A stretch of DNA of 64,000 bases from Gammaproteobacteria bacterium (GTDB lineage Bacteria > Pseudomonadota > Gammaproteobacteria > Eutrophobiales > Eutrophobiaceae): assembly GCA_030829955.1 (NCBI GenBank), contig JAURNY010000018.1, positions 94,377 through 158,376 on the forward strand, read 5' to 3'. Of the stretch, positions 25,420-57,494 are shown piece after piece; within the stretch, counting starts at the first letter, position 1; the number at the start of each line of letters is the position of its first letter. The position numbers and the translations under genes are program-made. The notes under the pieces are model-generated. The model had not been told where the DNA came from. It saw nothing but the letters and a program-made list of their open reading frames with translations, and did not search any database.

Positions 25420-26340
25420 TCATGAGCATGTATCAGTGATTTCACATTGATAAGCAGTTGATTGCATACGCATTATGCTTTGTGAATAAAGCACTATGCT
25501 GAAGCGTCCATTATCTGTAGGATCGGAAATACAGCTTTGGGCGAATGTGCCGGCAGCAGGCGGTCCAAAGAAACCTTCAGGGGTGTTGTCTGTATCCGGC
25601 CAATAATGTCCATAATCAATTTCTGATTGTGGTGCTGAACCCTTGCCATAGCGCTGCCAAGCCCAAATCATACGATTCACAAAAGGAACAATTAACTGAA
25701 AACAATAACCAACATGGACTTTTAACAAATTTGCATCTTGTATGGTCTGTGCACTTGCACCAACCAGATTGGAATCACGGTACATTAAATTATCATTCGG
25801 AATGCCTAATACCGCTCCACGTTCATCATCATCAATCATGACACCATAATCACTGAATGAATCTGCATTGGGATTAACGACAGTGATATTGACATAACCA
25901 TCATCAATTTGCTGCTGCACGATTTGACGGGCACAAAGCACGTCATCAGACTCAAACGTATTGATATTTTTATCGAGTACCCCGCGTGTATTGGTATCAA
26001 CAATTTGTGTCGCACCGACTCGTGCTTGTCTGCCAGCATCTGTATTTAGGAATGTACTGGAGCAGTCTCCTGAATTATCCATATTAAGATAACTACTGGT
26101 ATAAAGTGGTGACATATTACTGGCAAACGCGAGCTGCATATTGGATAAACTGGCATGACTGATGCTACCGGCACGAACAGTTTGGAAGGTTGCATAATTG
26201 AGCGTGACTTTGGCCTGATATATCAGGGCAAACTGTAATATACCCATTACCAGCATGAGCATAACAGGAAACACTATCAGGAACTCCACCATAGCTTGTC
26301 CATGTTGTGAATTTATATAGTGTCTATAGATAATCATCAT
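25420..26340 (-). CDS. TadE/TadF-like pseudopilin (Tad pilus minor component)
   Basis: 306 aa. N-terminal TadE-like segment QHGQAMVEFLIVFPVMLMLVMGILQFAL (G/xxxxEF pseudopilin motif plus a hydrophobic helix). Confidence 0.7.
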   Translation of the reverse strand: MMIIYRHYINSQHGQAMVEFLIVFPVMLMLVMGILQFALIYQAKVTLNYATFQTVRAGSISHASLSNMQLAFASNMSPLYTSSYLNMDNSGDCSSTFLNTDAGRQARVGATQIVDTNTRGVLDKNINTFESDDVLCARQIVQQQIDDGYVNITVVNPNADSFSDYGVMIDDDERGAVLGIPNDNLMYRDSNLVGASAQTIQDANLLKVHVGYCFQLIVPFVNRMIWAWQRYGKGSAPQSEIDYGHYWPDTDNTPEGFFGPPAAGTFAQSCISDPTDNGRFSIVLYSQSIMRMQSTAYQCEITDTCS

Positions 26341-26351
26341 GCTGCAGCTGA

Positions 26352-26825
26352 TTATTTTTCCTGAATAATCTTTTTGATTTCTTCCAGCATATCGTAAGCC
26401 TTACCATATAGAGGATCTTGTTTATCAGCATAGACTAACATTTCACTTAAACTAAATGCTGTTTGTTTTAATTGTACGACACTCAGGTTATACCAGGCTT
26501 TTGAGTGTTTAGGATCACGAATGACCGCTTCTCGATAAAGATTCATGGAGGCATAAGGTCTTTCTGTTCTGACATAGATATTAGCCATACGAAACCAGTA
26601 CTCAGCTTCCTGTGGTAATTCTTTTATCAGAATTTCGTAATATTTCTCACCATTCTGCAGGTCATCATTTTCATATGCCTGATTCGCTTTTCGTTTAATT
26701 TCCTGCAAATCAACTTGTGGCTCTGCCTCTACTTCAGTTTTATTCTGTAATGTATTACATCCACCTAGTAACAAGGCGATAGTTATTAACAGAATAGGTT
26801 TAACAAAGAGCGTTAGATAATTCAT
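26352..26825 (-). CDS. tadD: TPR-repeat lipoprotein, TadD-like
   Basis: 157 aa. Lipoprotein signal (LLLGGC lipobox) and TPR repeats, positioned after tadC. Confidence 0.6.
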   Translation of the reverse strand: MNYLTLFVKPILLITIALLLGGCNTLQNKTEVEAEPQVDLQEIKRKANQAYENDDLQNGEKYYEILIKELPQEAEYWFRMANIYVRTERPYASMNLYREAVIRDPKHSKAWYNLSVVQLKQTAFSLSEMLVYADKQDPLYGKAYDMLEEIKKIIQEK

Positions 26826-27172
26826 ATGTCCTTCCAGATAAGACGTTGTCCAATTTCTAAATTCAAGGTTTGCAATTTATTCGCATTGAGTTCAATTACT
26901 CCCTGTGCTGAATGGCAGATGGAAAAGCAGCATGGTCTTAACGTCTTTACCATTTTTACAATACGACATTCCTTATCCACATAGATTAAATCAATGCTGT
27001 AACGCATACCCAATGTATGCACAGATGAGCATGGCGTAATATATAAAGCTTCATTTGCCTGTAATTTTTTTCTAAGCAATAAACCGCAGAGTCGTTCAAG
27101 AAAGTGCGTTGTTTTTTTTACATCGGGTAAAACACATTGCTCAGGTTCAATCATTAACCTGCCATGCTTCAT
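26822..27172 (-). CDS. DUF192 (COG1430)-like protein
   Basis: 116 aa. Size and pattern consistent with DUF192. Translationally coupled to tadC upstream and tadD downstream (4-nt overlaps). Confidence 0.5.
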   Translation of the reverse strand: MKHGRLMIEPEQCVLPDVKKTTHFLERLCGLLLRKKLQANEALYITPCSSVHTLGMRYSIDLIYVDKECRIVKMVKTLRPCCFSICHSAQGVIELNANKLQTLNLEIGQRLIWKDI

Positions 27173-28050
27173 AACATGCCTTCAGACATGAATTTCATCA
27201 CGATGGGGAATCCTAATACGATAAACGTTACCGGGAAGATAAACATGATCAATGGTCCGACCAGTTTGATCGGTGCTTCCATAGCCAGTTTTTCAGCGCG
27301 TTGAAAACGCTCGTTTCTGCGCTGGTCTGATTGTACACGTAATACAGTTGCCAGTGACGCACCCATCTTTTCAGCCTGAATAATCGAACTCACAAACCCA
27401 GTAATTTCCTGAATATTTAGTCGCTCCGACATACGTCTCAGTGCATCAGCTCTTGAAAGGCCTGCACGTAGATCACGTAATACAATAGAGAACTCATTAC
27501 GTAGTGGTCCAGGAGGTGCTTTTTCCATTGCCTGTCCTAGTGCGCCTTGTAAATTTAAACCTGCTTCTACACACATCGTGATGAAATCCAGATAAACAGG
27601 CAATGTTCGTATTACTGCATTATCTCGTTTTTTTCGTGTGTCATTTAACCAGATGTTAGGAAATAAAAAGCCCAACACAGGCATAATCACAAACCAGACA
27701 GGTTGAAATTTATGCAGCATAATCATCATTAACAATGCGATGATTGGTGCAATGATTGCTGAAATAATTCTTAGCGCGATGAACTGTTCTGCATTTAATA
27801 AGTAACTAACACCAGAGTGGGTGATTTTCTTTTCAGTGCGTTCTAGAATTTCATAAGGAAAAAATACGACAAAGAAATTGGCAATGATTTGAATAAACGG
27901 CCAGATTATTTTTAATTTCCACGATAGAGGATCCATATAAGTACGATCTTCTTTATCGATCATTGAATAAACTGTACCGATTAAATATACGATCAGAAGG
28001 CCAGTTAGAAAATAACTTATGAGAGAGCCGTTGTAATATATAAAATCCAT
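27169..28050 (-). CDS. tadC: Tad pilus inner-membrane platform protein TadC (T2SS F family)
   Basis: 293 aa. T2SSF domain, second of the TadB/TadC pair. Confidence 0.85.
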   Translation of the reverse strand: MDFIYYNGSLISYFLTGLLIVYLIGTVYSMIDKEDRTYMDPLSWKLKIIWPFIQIIANFFVVFFPYEILERTEKKITHSGVSYLLNAEQFIALRIISAIIAPIIALLMMIMLHKFQPVWFVIMPVLGFLFPNIWLNDTRKKRDNAVIRTLPVYLDFITMCVEAGLNLQGALGQAMEKAPPGPLRNEFSIVLRDLRAGLSRADALRRMSERLNIQEITGFVSSIIQAEKMGASLATVLRVQSDQRRNERFQRAEKLAMEAPIKLVGPLIMFIFPVTFIVLGFPIVMKFMSEGML

Positions 28051-28061
28051 TACATTAGTCT

Positions 28062-28943
28062 CTAAACATCAATGCTTGTGATCTTACTAATCATGAAATA
28101 GCCCATAGCTTCCATCACAATAATAATTGTTAATACTACCCAGCCTATTGTCGTCGTCCAGAGTTTACTCATAGCTTCTGGCTCCATGAAATTCAGTAAA
28201 ACGCCAAGCAGTATAGGTAAGCCTGTCATCACAATGCCCTGTAGCTTTCCCTGCGCAGTTAAACTTTCAATCTTGCCTTCCATCATGGCTTTACGGCGAA
28301 GTGTTTCGCCTAGCGTTTCCATGGTTTCAGCAAGATTACCGCCAACTTCGCGGTTGATTAGCAGAGCGGTTACCAACATACCAAAGTCAGCTATTGGAAT
28401 TCGTTCTTCCATCTTCTTTATAGAGACTTCAAACTCCACGCCTAGACGTTGTTCTTTAAGAAACAGTTCAAATTCCTGTGATAGGGGGGCAGGTTGTTCC
28501 TTGACTAAACTTTCCAATGCAATATTCAAACTGGCGCCGGCACGCATCGCACCGGAAATCATTGCCAAACCATCAGGCATTTGTGCTTCGAAACGTTTCA
28601 AACGCTGTTTGCGCATTTGTTTATAAATAGCAGTTGGGAAAAATAAAATGAGTCCAAGCATGGCAACTGTGGCTGCCGTATCGCGCGTAACGACAAAGGT
28701 CAAGACTGGTAAAACAATAATGGCGATGATATTCATAGTAAAGAGCTGATTTGGATCAACTGTCATGAACATATCTGAGGCATTCGCTGTCGCTGTTGAG
28801 GTGAATGTTTGCTTATAATTATCAGCAAACTCCTGTACCTTTTTGCCAAGTGCAAACCAGATGATCGCAACTGCCAAAAACACAGCTGCTAACGATAAAT
28901 AATAAGTAACGTTTGCAGAAAGAGAAAGGAAGAAGTCCATCAT
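28062..28943 (-). CDS. tadB: Tad pilus inner-membrane platform protein TadB (T2SS F family)
   Basis: 293 aa. T2SSF domain, immediately downstream of the ATPase gene. Confidence 0.85.
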   Translation of the reverse strand: MMDFFLSLSANVTYYLSLAAVFLAVAIIWFALGKKVQEFADNYKQTFTSTATANASDMFMTVDPNQLFTMNIIAIIVLPVLTFVVTRDTAATVAMLGLILFFPTAIYKQMRKQRLKRFEAQMPDGLAMISGAMRAGASLNIALESLVKEQPAPLSQEFELFLKEQRLGVEFEVSIKKMEERIPIADFGMLVTALLINREVGGNLAETMETLGETLRRKAMMEGKIESLTAQGKLQGIVMTGLPILLGVLLNFMEPEAMSKLWTTTIGWVVLTIIIVMEAMGYFMISKITSIDV

Positions 28944-28948
28944 AATAA

Positions 28949-30643
28949 TTAAGAGAAGATAGACATATCCACTGGTAAACCTCGTTGACGCATCTCTTCA
29001 TAAAAATGAGGAATTGCACCGGTTGCTTCAAAACGACCCTTTACTTTACCGTTTTCATCAAAGCCTTCCTGTTGATAACGGAAGATATCCTGCATGGAGA
29101 CAATTCCCGATTCTACACCGGTAATTTCGGTAATGTTTATGACGCGTCTAGAACCATCTGAAAAACGGGTTTGTTGGACAACAATATGAATTGCAGAGGC
29201 GACCATTTCACGAATAGCAGAGACAGGTAAATCCATGCCAGACATCATTACCATGACTTCGATACGTGCAATCAAATCACGCGGTGTATTAGCATGCGCA
29301 GTTGTTAATGATCCATCATGACCCGTATTCATCGCCTGTAACATGTCCAGTGTTTCACCACCACGACACTCACCAACTACAATTCGGTCAGGACGCATAC
29401 GTAAACAGTTTTTTACCAAATCACGAATTGGAATAGCACCTTTACCTTCAAGGTTTGGAGGTCGTGATTCAAGACTAACAAGGTGTGGTTGTGCGAGTTT
29501 TAGTTCAGCCGCGTCTTCTACAGTAACGATACGTTCTGATGGAGGAATAAAGTTTGATAACACATTAAGTAATGTTGTTTTACCGCTACCGGTACCACCT
29601 GAAATAATAATATTCATATGGTTATTTACTGCAGTTTCCAGAAACTTAACCATGTTTTGATTTATGGCGCCAAAGTTAACCAGATCCTGTGCGACTAGTT
29701 TTTGCTTAGCAAATTTACGAATAGTTAAACAAGGACCACGTAATGCAAGCGGAGGAATAATAGCATTTACACGCGAACCATCTTTTAAACGCGCATCAAC
29801 CATAGGAGAACTTTCATCAATACGACGGCCTAGTGGTGAGACAATACGTTCTATAGCCGTCATTACCGCATCGTCACTTGAAAAGGTAATTCCTGATAAA
29901 CTTAATTTACCTGACTGTTCGACGTAAATTTCATCAAACTTGTTGACCATGATTTCAGTTACTGACTCATCTGCTAATAACTCTTCTAACGGACCGAGAC
30001 CTACGGCTTCGTTCAATACTTCTGCTGCCAGTTTTACTTTATCAACATCATTAGGCAATTTAGAACCCATCTCTTCGATGATTTCTTTAATCATGCCCTG
30101 GACATGTTTACGTAATTTTTCTTCATCCATGCTACCTATATCAGTGCGACGAAGATCCATCGCGGCTAATAGTTCATCATGTACACGATTACGCCATTTG
30201 AATTTTTCATTATGTTGAAGATTGATTAACGTTTTGCTGACTTCTTCTGATTCATCTAGTGCCTGATGATGTTGAATGCCGATGACCGTACGCATACCAT
30301 CAAATAAACTATCATCTTCTTCATCAATTTCATCCATATCGTTCGTTGCAGAACTCATGCCTGCCTTAATATAATATCCGGCGATAATGATTTCATCAGA
30401 AGATCGAATAGGACCGTGATGGTCGACATCAACACCATTGACCTCAATACGTTTCTGTCCGGTTTTATCTTCAATAAACAAACCTTCTGAAGTTCGATGT
30501 ATCTCTGCATGATGGGGTGCGACTTTCCAACCGCGTAACTGAATAAAGTTATCACGCGCCTTACCGATAGTGCACTCACTTACCGGACAATGAAAATTCT
30601 GTATTCTTTCGCCTTTACTATTATTTACGATGACATCAAACAT
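28949..30643 (-). CDS. tadA: CpaF/TadA secretion ATPase with an N-terminal FHA domain
   Basis: 564 aa. Residues 1 to ~100 show an FHA pattern (TIGKARDNFIQL...HAEIHRTSEGLFIEDK...NGVDV). The remainder is a T2SS-E/CpaF ATPase (Walker A GGTGSGKTT, Asp box, Walker B, His box). Confidence 0.88.
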   Translation of the reverse strand: MFDVIVNNSKGERIQNFHCPVSECTIGKARDNFIQLRGWKVAPHHAEIHRTSEGLFIEDKTGQKRIEVNGVDVDHHGPIRSSDEIIIAGYYIKAGMSSATNDMDEIDEEDDSLFDGMRTVIGIQHHQALDESEEVSKTLINLQHNEKFKWRNRVHDELLAAMDLRRTDIGSMDEEKLRKHVQGMIKEIIEEMGSKLPNDVDKVKLAAEVLNEAVGLGPLEELLADESVTEIMVNKFDEIYVEQSGKLSLSGITFSSDDAVMTAIERIVSPLGRRIDESSPMVDARLKDGSRVNAIIPPLALRGPCLTIRKFAKQKLVAQDLVNFGAINQNMVKFLETAVNNHMNIIISGGTGSGKTTLLNVLSNFIPPSERIVTVEDAAELKLAQPHLVSLESRPPNLEGKGAIPIRDLVKNCLRMRPDRIVVGECRGGETLDMLQAMNTGHDGSLTTAHANTPRDLIARIEVMVMMSGMDLPVSAIREMVASAIHIVVQQTRFSDGSRRVINITEITGVESGIVSMQDIFRYQQEGFDENGKVKGRFEATGAIPHFYEEMRQRGLPVDMSIFS

Positions 30644-30661
30644 AATTAAACCTGAATAAAA

Positions 30662-32161
30662 TTAATAAACGATATCGATATTATCTCTATCAATAGCCTC
30701 TATAGTTGCGCGTATGCCTTCCTCAGCATATTCAACCATGTCACGATTATGTTGAGATTGACCGTCGATAATTTCTGGCGTGACAAAGATAACCAGTTCC
30801 GTTTTATCATTAAGAAATGATTCAGAACGAAATAGGCGACCCAGAATTGGAATATCTTTCAAAAACTTGATGCCATTAATGGTTTCTGAGGCTTGTTGGT
30901 CAATAAGCCCAGACATCACTAGTGTTTCACCTGATTTCAAGATCACATCTGCTTCTGTGCGCCTAGTTAATAAACCGGGGATGTTATTAATCGCAACACT
31001 AAAATCCAGAGAGCTAATTTCGGTGGTGACATTGGCTCTGACATTATTATTACGATCAATTTCTGGCGTTACACTTAACTGAATACCATATTCCTTAAAT
31101 TCAACTGTCGTACCATTAATGGTAGAAATCTCAATTGGAAATTCACCACCAGCTAGAAATGTTGCTTCACCACCGCTACGGGCAGTTAAACGTGGTTCGG
31201 CCAGAATCACTGCATCGCCGGAACTTACCGCAAAATTAATTCGGGAAACAATTTCTGCCGCTATACCAAAGTAACCTAATGGACTACTGGCATTGTCCGC
31301 AGCACTTAAATTACCGGTAAAACTAGGTAAACCATTATCATCAGTAACTGTTGTTCCGCGAAACGTACTATTATTTACAGCATCAAAAGCAAAGGCAGCA
31401 GTAGGGCCAGAAACCGATGTATTCCAGTTAATGCCGAGGCTGTCAGTGAAAGATTTGCTGAATTCAGTAATCTTGGTGTTCATTAACACCATTTTGTTAT
31501 CCGGCATGTTCATATCGAGACTAGCACGTTGAGTTAAATCCATCAGTTCGCTGAATTTAGCCTGAACAGTTTCAATAGCAGTTGCATAACCATTATCAAC
31601 AGTACCACTCAAGACAATATTTTCACCGACAATTCGTACTTCAAGTCCTTCCAGTTCAGATAACAGATCTTCAATTTCGAGTTTTTTTCTAACCAAATCA
31701 TTAACAGCAAAATTAATATTATTAAGAATCTCCGGATAAGCTTCTATCAGCATCGCAATTTGAGCTTCATTGCCATAACCAACCTGTCCATTAAGGATAA
31801 TACGCTCACCAACAATATCTACATGTAAACCTGGTATATGAGCCAGAAGTTTCTCAATTTCATTTTTTCGTTGATTAATATTGTTTGAAGTATTTGCTAC
31901 ATGCACCATGTAATCTTTTTCAGTGCCATTACTAAACCAGACATGAACATTGGTAGAGCCCTCTTCTTCGGCAATTAGGATTAACTGACCGCTATTTAGT
32001 AGAGAATTACTTAACACCGAGGGACTGCCGACTGCAATACGTTCAATATTGCCAAGCTTTAATATTTTGATCTCACCAATATACATATCAAAGCGTTCAG
32101 CAGCATTTACCATTGCTGTGAGCATAAGCATGCTTAGGATTAATATTATTTTTTTCATCAT
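30662..32161 (-). CDS. rcpA: Tad secretin RcpA/CpaC
   Basis: 499 aa. Signal peptide, two N-terminal secretin-N/BON-like repeats and a C-terminal secretin domain (GIKFLKDIPILGRLF). Confidence 0.88.
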   Translation of the reverse strand: MMKKIILILSMLMLTAMVNAAERFDMYIGEIKILKLGNIERIAVGSPSVLSNSLLNSGQLILIAEEEGSTNVHVWFSNGTEKDYMVHVANTSNNINQRKNEIEKLLAHIPGLHVDIVGERIILNGQVGYGNEAQIAMLIEAYPEILNNINFAVNDLVRKKLEIEDLLSELEGLEVRIVGENIVLSGTVDNGYATAIETVQAKFSELMDLTQRASLDMNMPDNKMVLMNTKITEFSKSFTDSLGINWNTSVSGPTAAFAFDAVNNSTFRGTTVTDDNGLPSFTGNLSAADNASSPLGYFGIAAEIVSRINFAVSSGDAVILAEPRLTARSGGEATFLAGGEFPIEISTINGTTVEFKEYGIQLSVTPEIDRNNNVRANVTTEISSLDFSVAINNIPGLLTRRTEADVILKSGETLVMSGLIDQQASETINGIKFLKDIPILGRLFRSESFLNDKTELVIFVTPEIIDGQSQHNRDMVEYAEEGIRATIEAIDRDNIDIVY

Positions 32162-32205
32162 ATCTCTCTTCCTAACTCCTTATTCTTTACGCTTCATGAC
32201 TCAAT

Positions 32206-32460
32206 TTATTTAGTACGTTTCGGAAACACAGTAATCTGTTTTGCAACACCATTTTCTGATTGTCCACCAACAATCATTTTTATAGGTTTCCCCTGCAAAG
32301 CAAAATTATCTATATAATTTATTTCTTGAGTTGTATGTTTATTGAATTCAACTATCGGACTATCTTTCGACGTTGTTACAATCTCATTAAATTCCGAATC
32401 ATTCGCTTGCAATGAGCTGAATAAAAATAAACAAGCTGTGCCAGCGAACACTTTAAGCAT
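32206..32460 (-). CDS. small secreted protein paralogous to the C-terminal module of the upstream CpaB-like protein
   Basis: 84 aa with a signal peptide. Its C-terminus KMIVGGQSENGVAKQITVFPKRTK parallels the C-terminus of the 704-aa protein (ELIIGGSSEDGVAKSQKVALPVETK), with visible DNA-level similarity. Start abuts the upstream stop. Confidence 0.55.
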   Translation of the reverse strand: MLKVFAGTACLFLFSSLQANDSEFNEIVTTSKDSPIVEFNKHTTQEINYIDNFALQGKPIKMIVGGQSENGVAKQITVFPKRTK

Positions 32461-54241: not shown

Positions 54242-54317
54242 TGGTGCCCTGAGCAGGAATCGAACCTGCGACCTATCGCTTAGGAGGCGATTGCTCTATC
54301 CACTGAGCTACCAGGGC
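54242..54317 (-). tRNA. tRNA-Arg (anticodon CCU)
   Basis: The reverse complement folds as a 76-nt cloverleaf: GCCCTGG acceptor, D-arm TAGCTCAGTGGATAGAGCA, anticodon loop CTCCTAA, T-arm GCAGGTTCGATTCCTGC, 3' CCA encoded. Confidence 0.85.
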
Positions 54318-57403: not shown

Positions 57404-57494
57404 GGAGAGGTGTCCGAGTGGTTGAAGGAGCACGCCTGGAAAGTGTGTATACGGTTAACCCGTATCGAGGGTTCGAATCCCTCTCTCTCCGCCA
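57404..57494 (+). tRNA. tRNA-Ser (anticodon GGA)
   Basis: 91-nt class II tRNA: GGAGAGG acceptor, GTCCGAGTGGTTGAAGGAG D-arm, anticodon loop CTGGAAA, long variable arm, T-arm GGGTTCGAATCCC, CCA encoded. Confidence 0.85.

Follow-up and report, generated by a model that had tools for sequence, protein, structure and literature searches.

[quoted passage not shown] Caulobacter uses one more component, CpaI. In the models, CpaB binds the pil_N sandwich of CpaI by its last two strands, and CpaI in turn binds the N-domain of CpaC in the same way by its own last strands, an arrangement for which the authors explicitly draw the donor-strand analogy (PMC13170226, PMC12637624). These 2025-2026 structures indicate that the two halves of the Tad machine join via short C-terminal beta-hairpins placed in pil_N sandwiches (RcpC-RcpA; CpaB-CpaI-CpaC).

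The stretch of DNA analysed here (64,000 nucleotides, referred to as the window) carries a Tad/Flp pilus operon at 25420-38911 (-) with mutS and htpG as its neighbours on either side. No GC anomaly is found in the Tad locus. The first gene encodes the Flp pilin (38675-38911, -). It is followed by genes for a TadG-like protein (36751-38601, -), two pseudopilin-like proteins (352 and 121 aa), a 239-aa exported protein, and a CpaB/RcpC homologue. Then come the small ORF studied here and the secretin gene, and 3' of the latter are genes encoding FHA-TadA, TadB, TadC, a DUF192 protein, a TPR lipoprotein (26352-26825, -, apart from the small ORF), and a TadE-like protein. In the TadA ATPase (28949-30643, -) the FHA domain is located at the N-terminus. 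The operon has neither TadZ/CpaE nor a prepilin peptidase gene. The 239-aa exported protein (34977-35696, -) has no Pfam/NCBIfam match and is present in every related operon. An inverted repeat with a 13-bp stem (38632-38663) separates the flp pilin gene from the tadG-like gene; it resembles an attenuator or terminator, which would fix how much pilin is made relative to the machinery. Rfam models match the window at two tRNA genes only (54245-54317, -, and 57404-57491, +).

The CpaB/RcpC homologue (704 aa; 32461-34575, -) matches TIGR03177 (E = 2.7e-37), PF16976 (E = 1.6e-21), and DUF3659 repeats, and in a Foldseek search its N-terminal domains match P. aeruginosa RcpC (9gzr) with E = 1e-10. 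Its AlphaFold2 model, based on a 30-sequence alignment (mean pLDDT 74.5), consists of a transmembrane (TM) helix, SAF and RcpC domains, a repeat region, and a terminal strand pair, with a long helix at aa 11-43. About eight diverged 40-aa repeats lie between the RcpC domain and the hairpin (aa ~320-650; 32600-33620, -). They match DUF3659 with E = 2.5e-28 and are modelled with pLDDT about 80; in P. aeruginosa RcpC just a short linker takes their place. No DNA-level tandem repeats are found in cpaB, and the lengths of CpaB homologues (577-840 aa) suggest that the repeats vary in copy number. The terminal hairpin (aa 672-694, EYELIIGGSSEDGVAKSQKVALP; 32494-32562, -) is formed by strands 672-677 and 687-692 with a GGSSEDG turn between them. 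Model confidence is lower here, in keeping with an element that depends on a partner. The corresponding motif, (Y/I)(D/E)LIIGG-S-DGVAK----(L/V)P, is C-terminal in more than 100 homologues, and G678, G679, and G684 are invariant. In PDB sequence searches with CpaB, the family profile, and the hairpin profile, RcpC (9gzr) is reached via the N-terminal domains only (E = 0.0013). As the hairpin profile misses P. aeruginosa RcpC, equivalence of the two hairpins rests on their position, the predicted structure, and the assignment of CpaB to its family. On these grounds, the module that CpaB shares with the small ORF is supported as the CpaB/RcpC C-terminal beta-hairpin, whose published equivalent docks on the secretin N-domain or on CpaI.

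The small ORF (84 aa; 32206-32460, -, stop codon included) begins with an ATG placed immediately after the TAA of the cpaB gene (TAAATG; 32458-32463, -). No notable promoter-like or terminator-like site is found at this junction. As the preliminary description had claimed, the last ~25 aa of the small ORF parallel the C-terminus of CpaB. BLASTP aligns aa 61-84 with CpaB aa 674-698 (13/25 identical, 17/25 positive; E = 7e-5 in a single comparison), and the DNA similarity that had also been noted extends over a 42-column local alignment spanning the motif. The Smith-Waterman score (62) exceeds that of 2000 shuffles of the small ORF (31.5 +/- 5.1) by about six standard deviations. It is attained by one of these shuffles and by none of 500 shuffles of CpaB. 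Searched against all six reading frames of the 64-kb window, a profile made from small-ORF tails of other loci has just two matches: the small ORF itself (E = 3e-15) and, with E = 1.7e-7, the CpaB C-terminus. In turn, the CpaB-tail profile matches the small-ORF tail with E = 4e-6, and both reciprocal matches are unique in the window. The shuffle test and the reciprocal profiles therefore make the similarity correct and not a low-complexity artefact, which was what the proposed pairwise alignment had been meant to decide. At the sequence level, the tail of the small ORF is shown to be a paralogue of the CpaB C-terminal hairpin, and with the identity of that hairpin the earlier reading of the ORF as a stand-alone copy of the terminal docking module of CpaB holds.

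The small ORF is a genuine gene of the Tad operon. Gene calls on 26 contigs include the identical protein. While a word-indexed single-sequence search returns only the protein itself, an exhaustive phmmer search finds three true relatives with identical layout. The same search also matches PAS-repeat proteins (P0128, P0129, P0131, P0132, P0134, and P0136; small-ORF aa 18-70) with E-values down to 1e-24. These matches are an artefact, since 3-8 weak stretches per protein, 8-19 bits each, are summed, and with the family profile their E-values exceed 1e6. Neither the small ORF nor three of its orthologues match any Pfam or NCBIfam model at E <= 0.01. A profile search of the protein database collects 38 such proteins of 75-136 aa including the one in the window, all unnamed or hypothetical and without a Pfam domain. 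When related loci are gathered by a scan with the CpaB profile (80 loci, one genome per species), an orthologue is found between cpaB and the secretin gene in 44 of them. In these 44 loci, GC content ranges from 40 to 67%, cpaB and the secretin gene are separated by ~290-620 nt (in L050 the ORF overlaps the cpaB end), and each locus has exactly two matches to the hairpin profile. In the other complete loci the gap is mostly <200 nt with no small ORF, and at most one copy of the hairpin is detectable. The start codons of the orthologues lie at -31 to +33 nt relative to the cpaB stop codon, ATGA or TAATG overlaps being common. Within the small protein, pairwise dN/dS is 0.015-0.43 for the hairpin (about 0.1) and 0.25-0.68 outside it. 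All 80 loci have the 13 other operon genes in unchanged order; the small ORF is the only variable gene, and none of the others co-varies with its presence. A Moraxella bovis plasmid has the same operon type and 13-gene order, but its CpaB is short and the small ORF is absent.

One allele is truncated. The locus L086 (GCA_038142745.1, JAYQKP010000002.1) is 99.8% identical to window positions 29000-35700 but contains four indels in homopolymers over 6.2 kb; these split tadA and the gene for the 239-aa protein and cut the small ORF to 59 aa. These indels are probably long-read assembly errors. As tadA is broken as well, the 59-aa allele was rejected as a sign of dispensability.

Members of the family share one layout: a signal peptide, a disordered variable linker, and a hairpin motif at the extreme C-terminus. 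An N-terminal hydrophobic segment with a small-x-small site is found in 77 of 81 distinct members. In the window protein, the N-terminus is short and signal-peptide-like with an LQA/ND site, and a Sec signal peptide is predicted at aa 1-19 (MLKVFAGTACLFLFSSLQA; 32404-32460, -) with cleavage before ND. Only 3/81 members have a lipobox-like motif, and the window protein has no canonical lipobox. The small protein is probably exported by the Sec pathway to the periplasm with cleavage of its signal peptide. Between the signal peptide and the hairpin there are only about 40 variable residues. The first part of this region is a strand-turn-strand-like motif (aa 23-41, EFNEIVTTSKDSPIVEFNK / EIVTTSKDSPIVEFN; 32338-32394, -). 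A profile search finds it in 10 of the 81 members (the window protein and its nine closest relatives), and AlphaFold2 predicts no structure for it. Other subclades carry different N-terminal motifs, e.g., AAGQVTEAHAGTRKGTVYEATP. The possibility that the small protein is bivalent by means of this second hairpin-like motif was rejected on account of its presence in those 10 members only. The linker that follows (aa 42-59; 32284-32337, -) is conserved across the family in neither length nor sequence, is rich in A/G/S/T/P/E/D, and is modelled with pLDDT about 55 and no secondary structure.

The C-terminal hairpin motif (aa 60-80, IKMIVGGQSENGVAKQITVFP; 32221-32283, -; hairpin peptide IKMIVGGQSENGVAKQITVFPKRTK) is the sole universally conserved element of the small protein. 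In the orthologues it reads (I/V)(K/E)(M/L)I(V/I/T)GG-S-DG(V/A)A(K/R)---LP(V/I)-(D/E) at the extreme C-terminus. Among 42 orthologues, the residues at positions I63, G65, G66, G71, and A73 are invariant or nearly so. The AlphaFold2 model of the small protein (pLDDT about 56) has no secondary structure and leaves the hairpin unresolved, so that a hairpin fold is predicted from its likeness to the tail of CpaB. Of what the preliminary description had expected beyond the tail similarity, the signal peptide is borne out by the family, and so is conservation of the motif and the ORF in other Tad loci. Structure prediction of the two C-termini agrees with expectation in part: CpaB has its two-strand hairpin, and the small protein's own model has none.

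How did a gene for a hairpin arise? Even when the hairpin is left out of the comparison, the longer orthologues (138-195 aa; L046, L049, L050, and L071) retain matches to the 40-aa repeats of the CpaB encoded in the same locus (E = 1e-5 to 1e-7), implying that the family descends from a duplication of the cpaB 3' end, repeats and hairpin together, and gained a signal peptide. In the small protein of the window, similarity to the CpaB repeats is gone. A partial duplication covering the cpaB 3' end is thus indicated as the source of the small gene. Its origin is single: in a neighbour-joining tree of the CpaB N-terminal region, every locus bearing the gene falls in one clade. Nested in this clade are a locus where the small gene is deleted and 74 nt are left (L053) and another where the GG core has decayed to KM (L030). 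The gene is therefore not indispensable. Divergence of the CpaB hairpin from an ancestral form preserved in the small protein was also considered but is not supported, as the two score alike against 27 outgroup CpaB hairpins (44.5 vs 44.4, p = 0.66).

The structures known from P. aeruginosa and Caulobacter suggest where such a hairpin may act. [quoted passage not shown] By analogy, this pil_N domain is the putative acceptor. Translation of the small ORF is probably coupled to that of cpaB, and the product would be a Sec-exported, largely disordered periplasmic mini-protein with a CpaB-like C-terminal hairpin. Docking of the hairpin would most likely occur on the secretin encoded downstream, by augmentation of a beta-sheet in its pil_N beta-sandwich, an acceptor of the same kind as the CpaB hairpin uses. 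The small protein could then serve as a monovalent cap or filler at secretin N-domains without contact to the CpaB ring. Such vacant N-domains might be those awaiting the inner-membrane complex, or those in surplus from a symmetry mismatch like the 12:13/14 in P. aeruginosa. The cap or filler role is favoured because there is one binding motif and no ring-forming domain, and because the gene is co-expressed with cpaB. As a whole, the account in which the gene arose by duplication of cpaB and its product is exported and docks on the secretin in this role is judged probable by a little. The secretin N-domain is highly conserved in loci with and without the small ORF, and no insertion or motif in it distinguishes the two kinds of loci. 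Since these N-domains are alike, nothing marks an extra acceptor site.

The same binding site may also be given the opposite functional sign, with the small protein as a negative regulator. The hairpin mimic would compete with CpaB hairpins for the secretin N-domain, and the secretin and the inner-membrane complex would stay uncoupled until the multivalent CpaB ring displaces the mimic, as in donor-strand exchange. A protein with the CpaB hairpin motif that is monovalent and has no ring-forming domain is suited to such a checkpoint, and published models have the contact between hairpin and N-domain license pilus extension (PMC12307814). The tolerated loss in L053 and decay in L030 likewise fit a modulator over a core part. 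However, the gene is encoded within a structural operon and is probably co-translated with cpaB, which implies fixed stoichiometry and not regulated expression; in addition, inhibition and capping are indistinguishable by computation. A checkpoint of this sort is considered unlikely. A version in which the small protein is a decoy hairpin is given similarly little credence: it would cap the sheet edges of the N-domains and be displaced by the CpaB ring except at the one or two mismatch subunits. If this were true, the small protein would provide both an assembly checkpoint and an answer to the symmetry mismatch by donor-strand complementation and exchange, a type of part for which no description was found in the type IV filament literature.

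Alternatively, the partner may be CpaB itself. In this case the hairpin would pair with the CpaB hairpin or repeats in a mixed sheet and modulate or extend the periplasmic conduit. The observation of interest here is that turn residues change in parallel in the two hairpins. Turn-residue identity is 0.51 within the same locus and 0.40 across GC-matched loci, a difference reached by none of 5000 permutations, although this statistic ignores phylogeny. For example, the turn residues (four positions; small ORF/CpaB) are EGG/EGG in L011, GKDG/GKDG in L037, xEG/xEG in L045, and xAG/xAG in L059. Rare substitutions in the GG-xxxx-G turn are seen in both hairpins of the same genome in L011, L013, L014, L037, L045, and L059. 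Gene conversion was rejected as the cause. The fractions of identical codons are 0.48 and 0.43, and the conserved Ser is encoded by TCN in one gene and AGY in the other; with codons that differ in this way, the parallel changes do not come from recent gene conversion. They point to co-evolution of both hairpins under a shared constraint, and mutual contact of the hairpins would explain them equally well. The adjacency and coupling of the two genes and the CpaB-type repeats retained in some orthologues are also in line with CpaB as the partner. On the other hand, no precedent for this was found in the Tad literature, where hairpins donate to pil_N sandwiches, and outgroup CpaBs have the same repeats and hairpin without any small ORF. 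Pairing with CpaB is regarded as quite unlikely.

The strand-turn-strand-like motif at aa 23-41 of the window protein raises the thought of a minimal CpaI-like adaptor, binding the secretin by its C-terminal hairpin and the CpaB hairpin by its N-terminal strand motif. CpaI of Caulobacter is also small and exported, with its last two strands modelled on the secretin. However, the small protein has no pil_N domain, the N-terminal motif is confined to 10/81 members in a pre-hairpin region that is otherwise variable and of low complexity, and CpaB retains its own hairpin while related systems function without the small gene. An adaptor of this kind is highly improbable. Least credible is a non-functional relic of the duplication or a chance ORF: the ORF is short, has no known domain and a low-confidence model, and was lost or decayed in two lineages, but it is kept in 44 loci over a wide GC range with signal peptide and hairpin intact, its hairpin is under strong purifying selection, its inheritance is monophyletic, and its sole truncated allele is probably an assembly artefact.

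The small gene is a conserved, uncharacterised accessory of one gammaproteobacterial Tad clade, and no description of a hairpin-only Tad protein was found in literature searches. Reduced to a hairpin and a flexible tail that is putatively exported, its product represents the docking module as dissected by nature. It may serve as a minimal ligand with which the model of hairpin and N-domain can be addressed by binding, competition, and structure, and it is relevant to how a 12-fold ring meets a 13- or 14-fold secretin. It also illustrates that partial gene duplication can yield new accessory parts for envelope machines. The gene is confined to uncultivated Gammaproteobacteria, which limits immediate experiments; heterologous expression of the components is possible.

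Among known Tad components, RcpB is also a small accessory protein on the outer-membrane side. In Aggregatibacter the operon order is rcpC-rcpA-rcpB, so that rcpB comes after the secretin gene. The small ORF had been said to sit where rcpB would normally be. This is not the case: loci without it run cpaB straight into the secretin gene, and in the window the ORF sits between these two genes while the secretin gene is followed by that of the FHA-TadA ATPase. RcpB is a predicted outer-membrane protein and is set apart from the small ORF by gene position. A pilotin of the TadD type was likewise rejected, as the small protein has no canonical lipobox and no TPR match and a separate TPR lipoprotein is encoded in the operon.

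CpaI is closer in outline. It is a small Tad component that is exported by Sec and has its gene in the pilus locus, and its last two strands are modelled as donors to the secretin sandwich. The sequence of the small protein has a predicted signal peptide and a terminal hairpin motif, for which contact with the secretin would be putative. CpaI has a pil_N sandwich that takes the CpaB hairpin, and the small protein has none (no PF13629 match and a model without a fold), for which reason it is not a CpaI. CpaI is reported mainly in Alphaproteobacteria, and the small protein derives from cpaB and not from a secretin N-domain. Outside the Tad systems, a short beta element completes or extends a foreign sandwich in donor-strand complementation and exchange of the chaperone-usher pathway and in the docking of GspC-HR or PilP on secretin N0, by which envelope machines are linked. 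These are unrelated protein families, and the likeness is an analogy of mechanism.

The closest counterpart is RcpC. At the sequence level, no likeness between the small-protein hairpin and that of P. aeruginosa RcpC could be demonstrated. Of the features that define RcpC/CpaB, the C-terminal hairpin is present by paralogy. The small protein is not a member of that family, since the SAF and RcpC domains and the TM anchor are absent, and it also lacks the oligomerising linker. In their place it has a putative cleavable signal peptide, and it would be monovalent. What remains is a motif that would act like the donor end of RcpC or CpaI; it is the paralogue of the hairpin in the adjacent RcpC homologue, CpaB, and likely completes a sheet of the secretin N-domain in the same manner.
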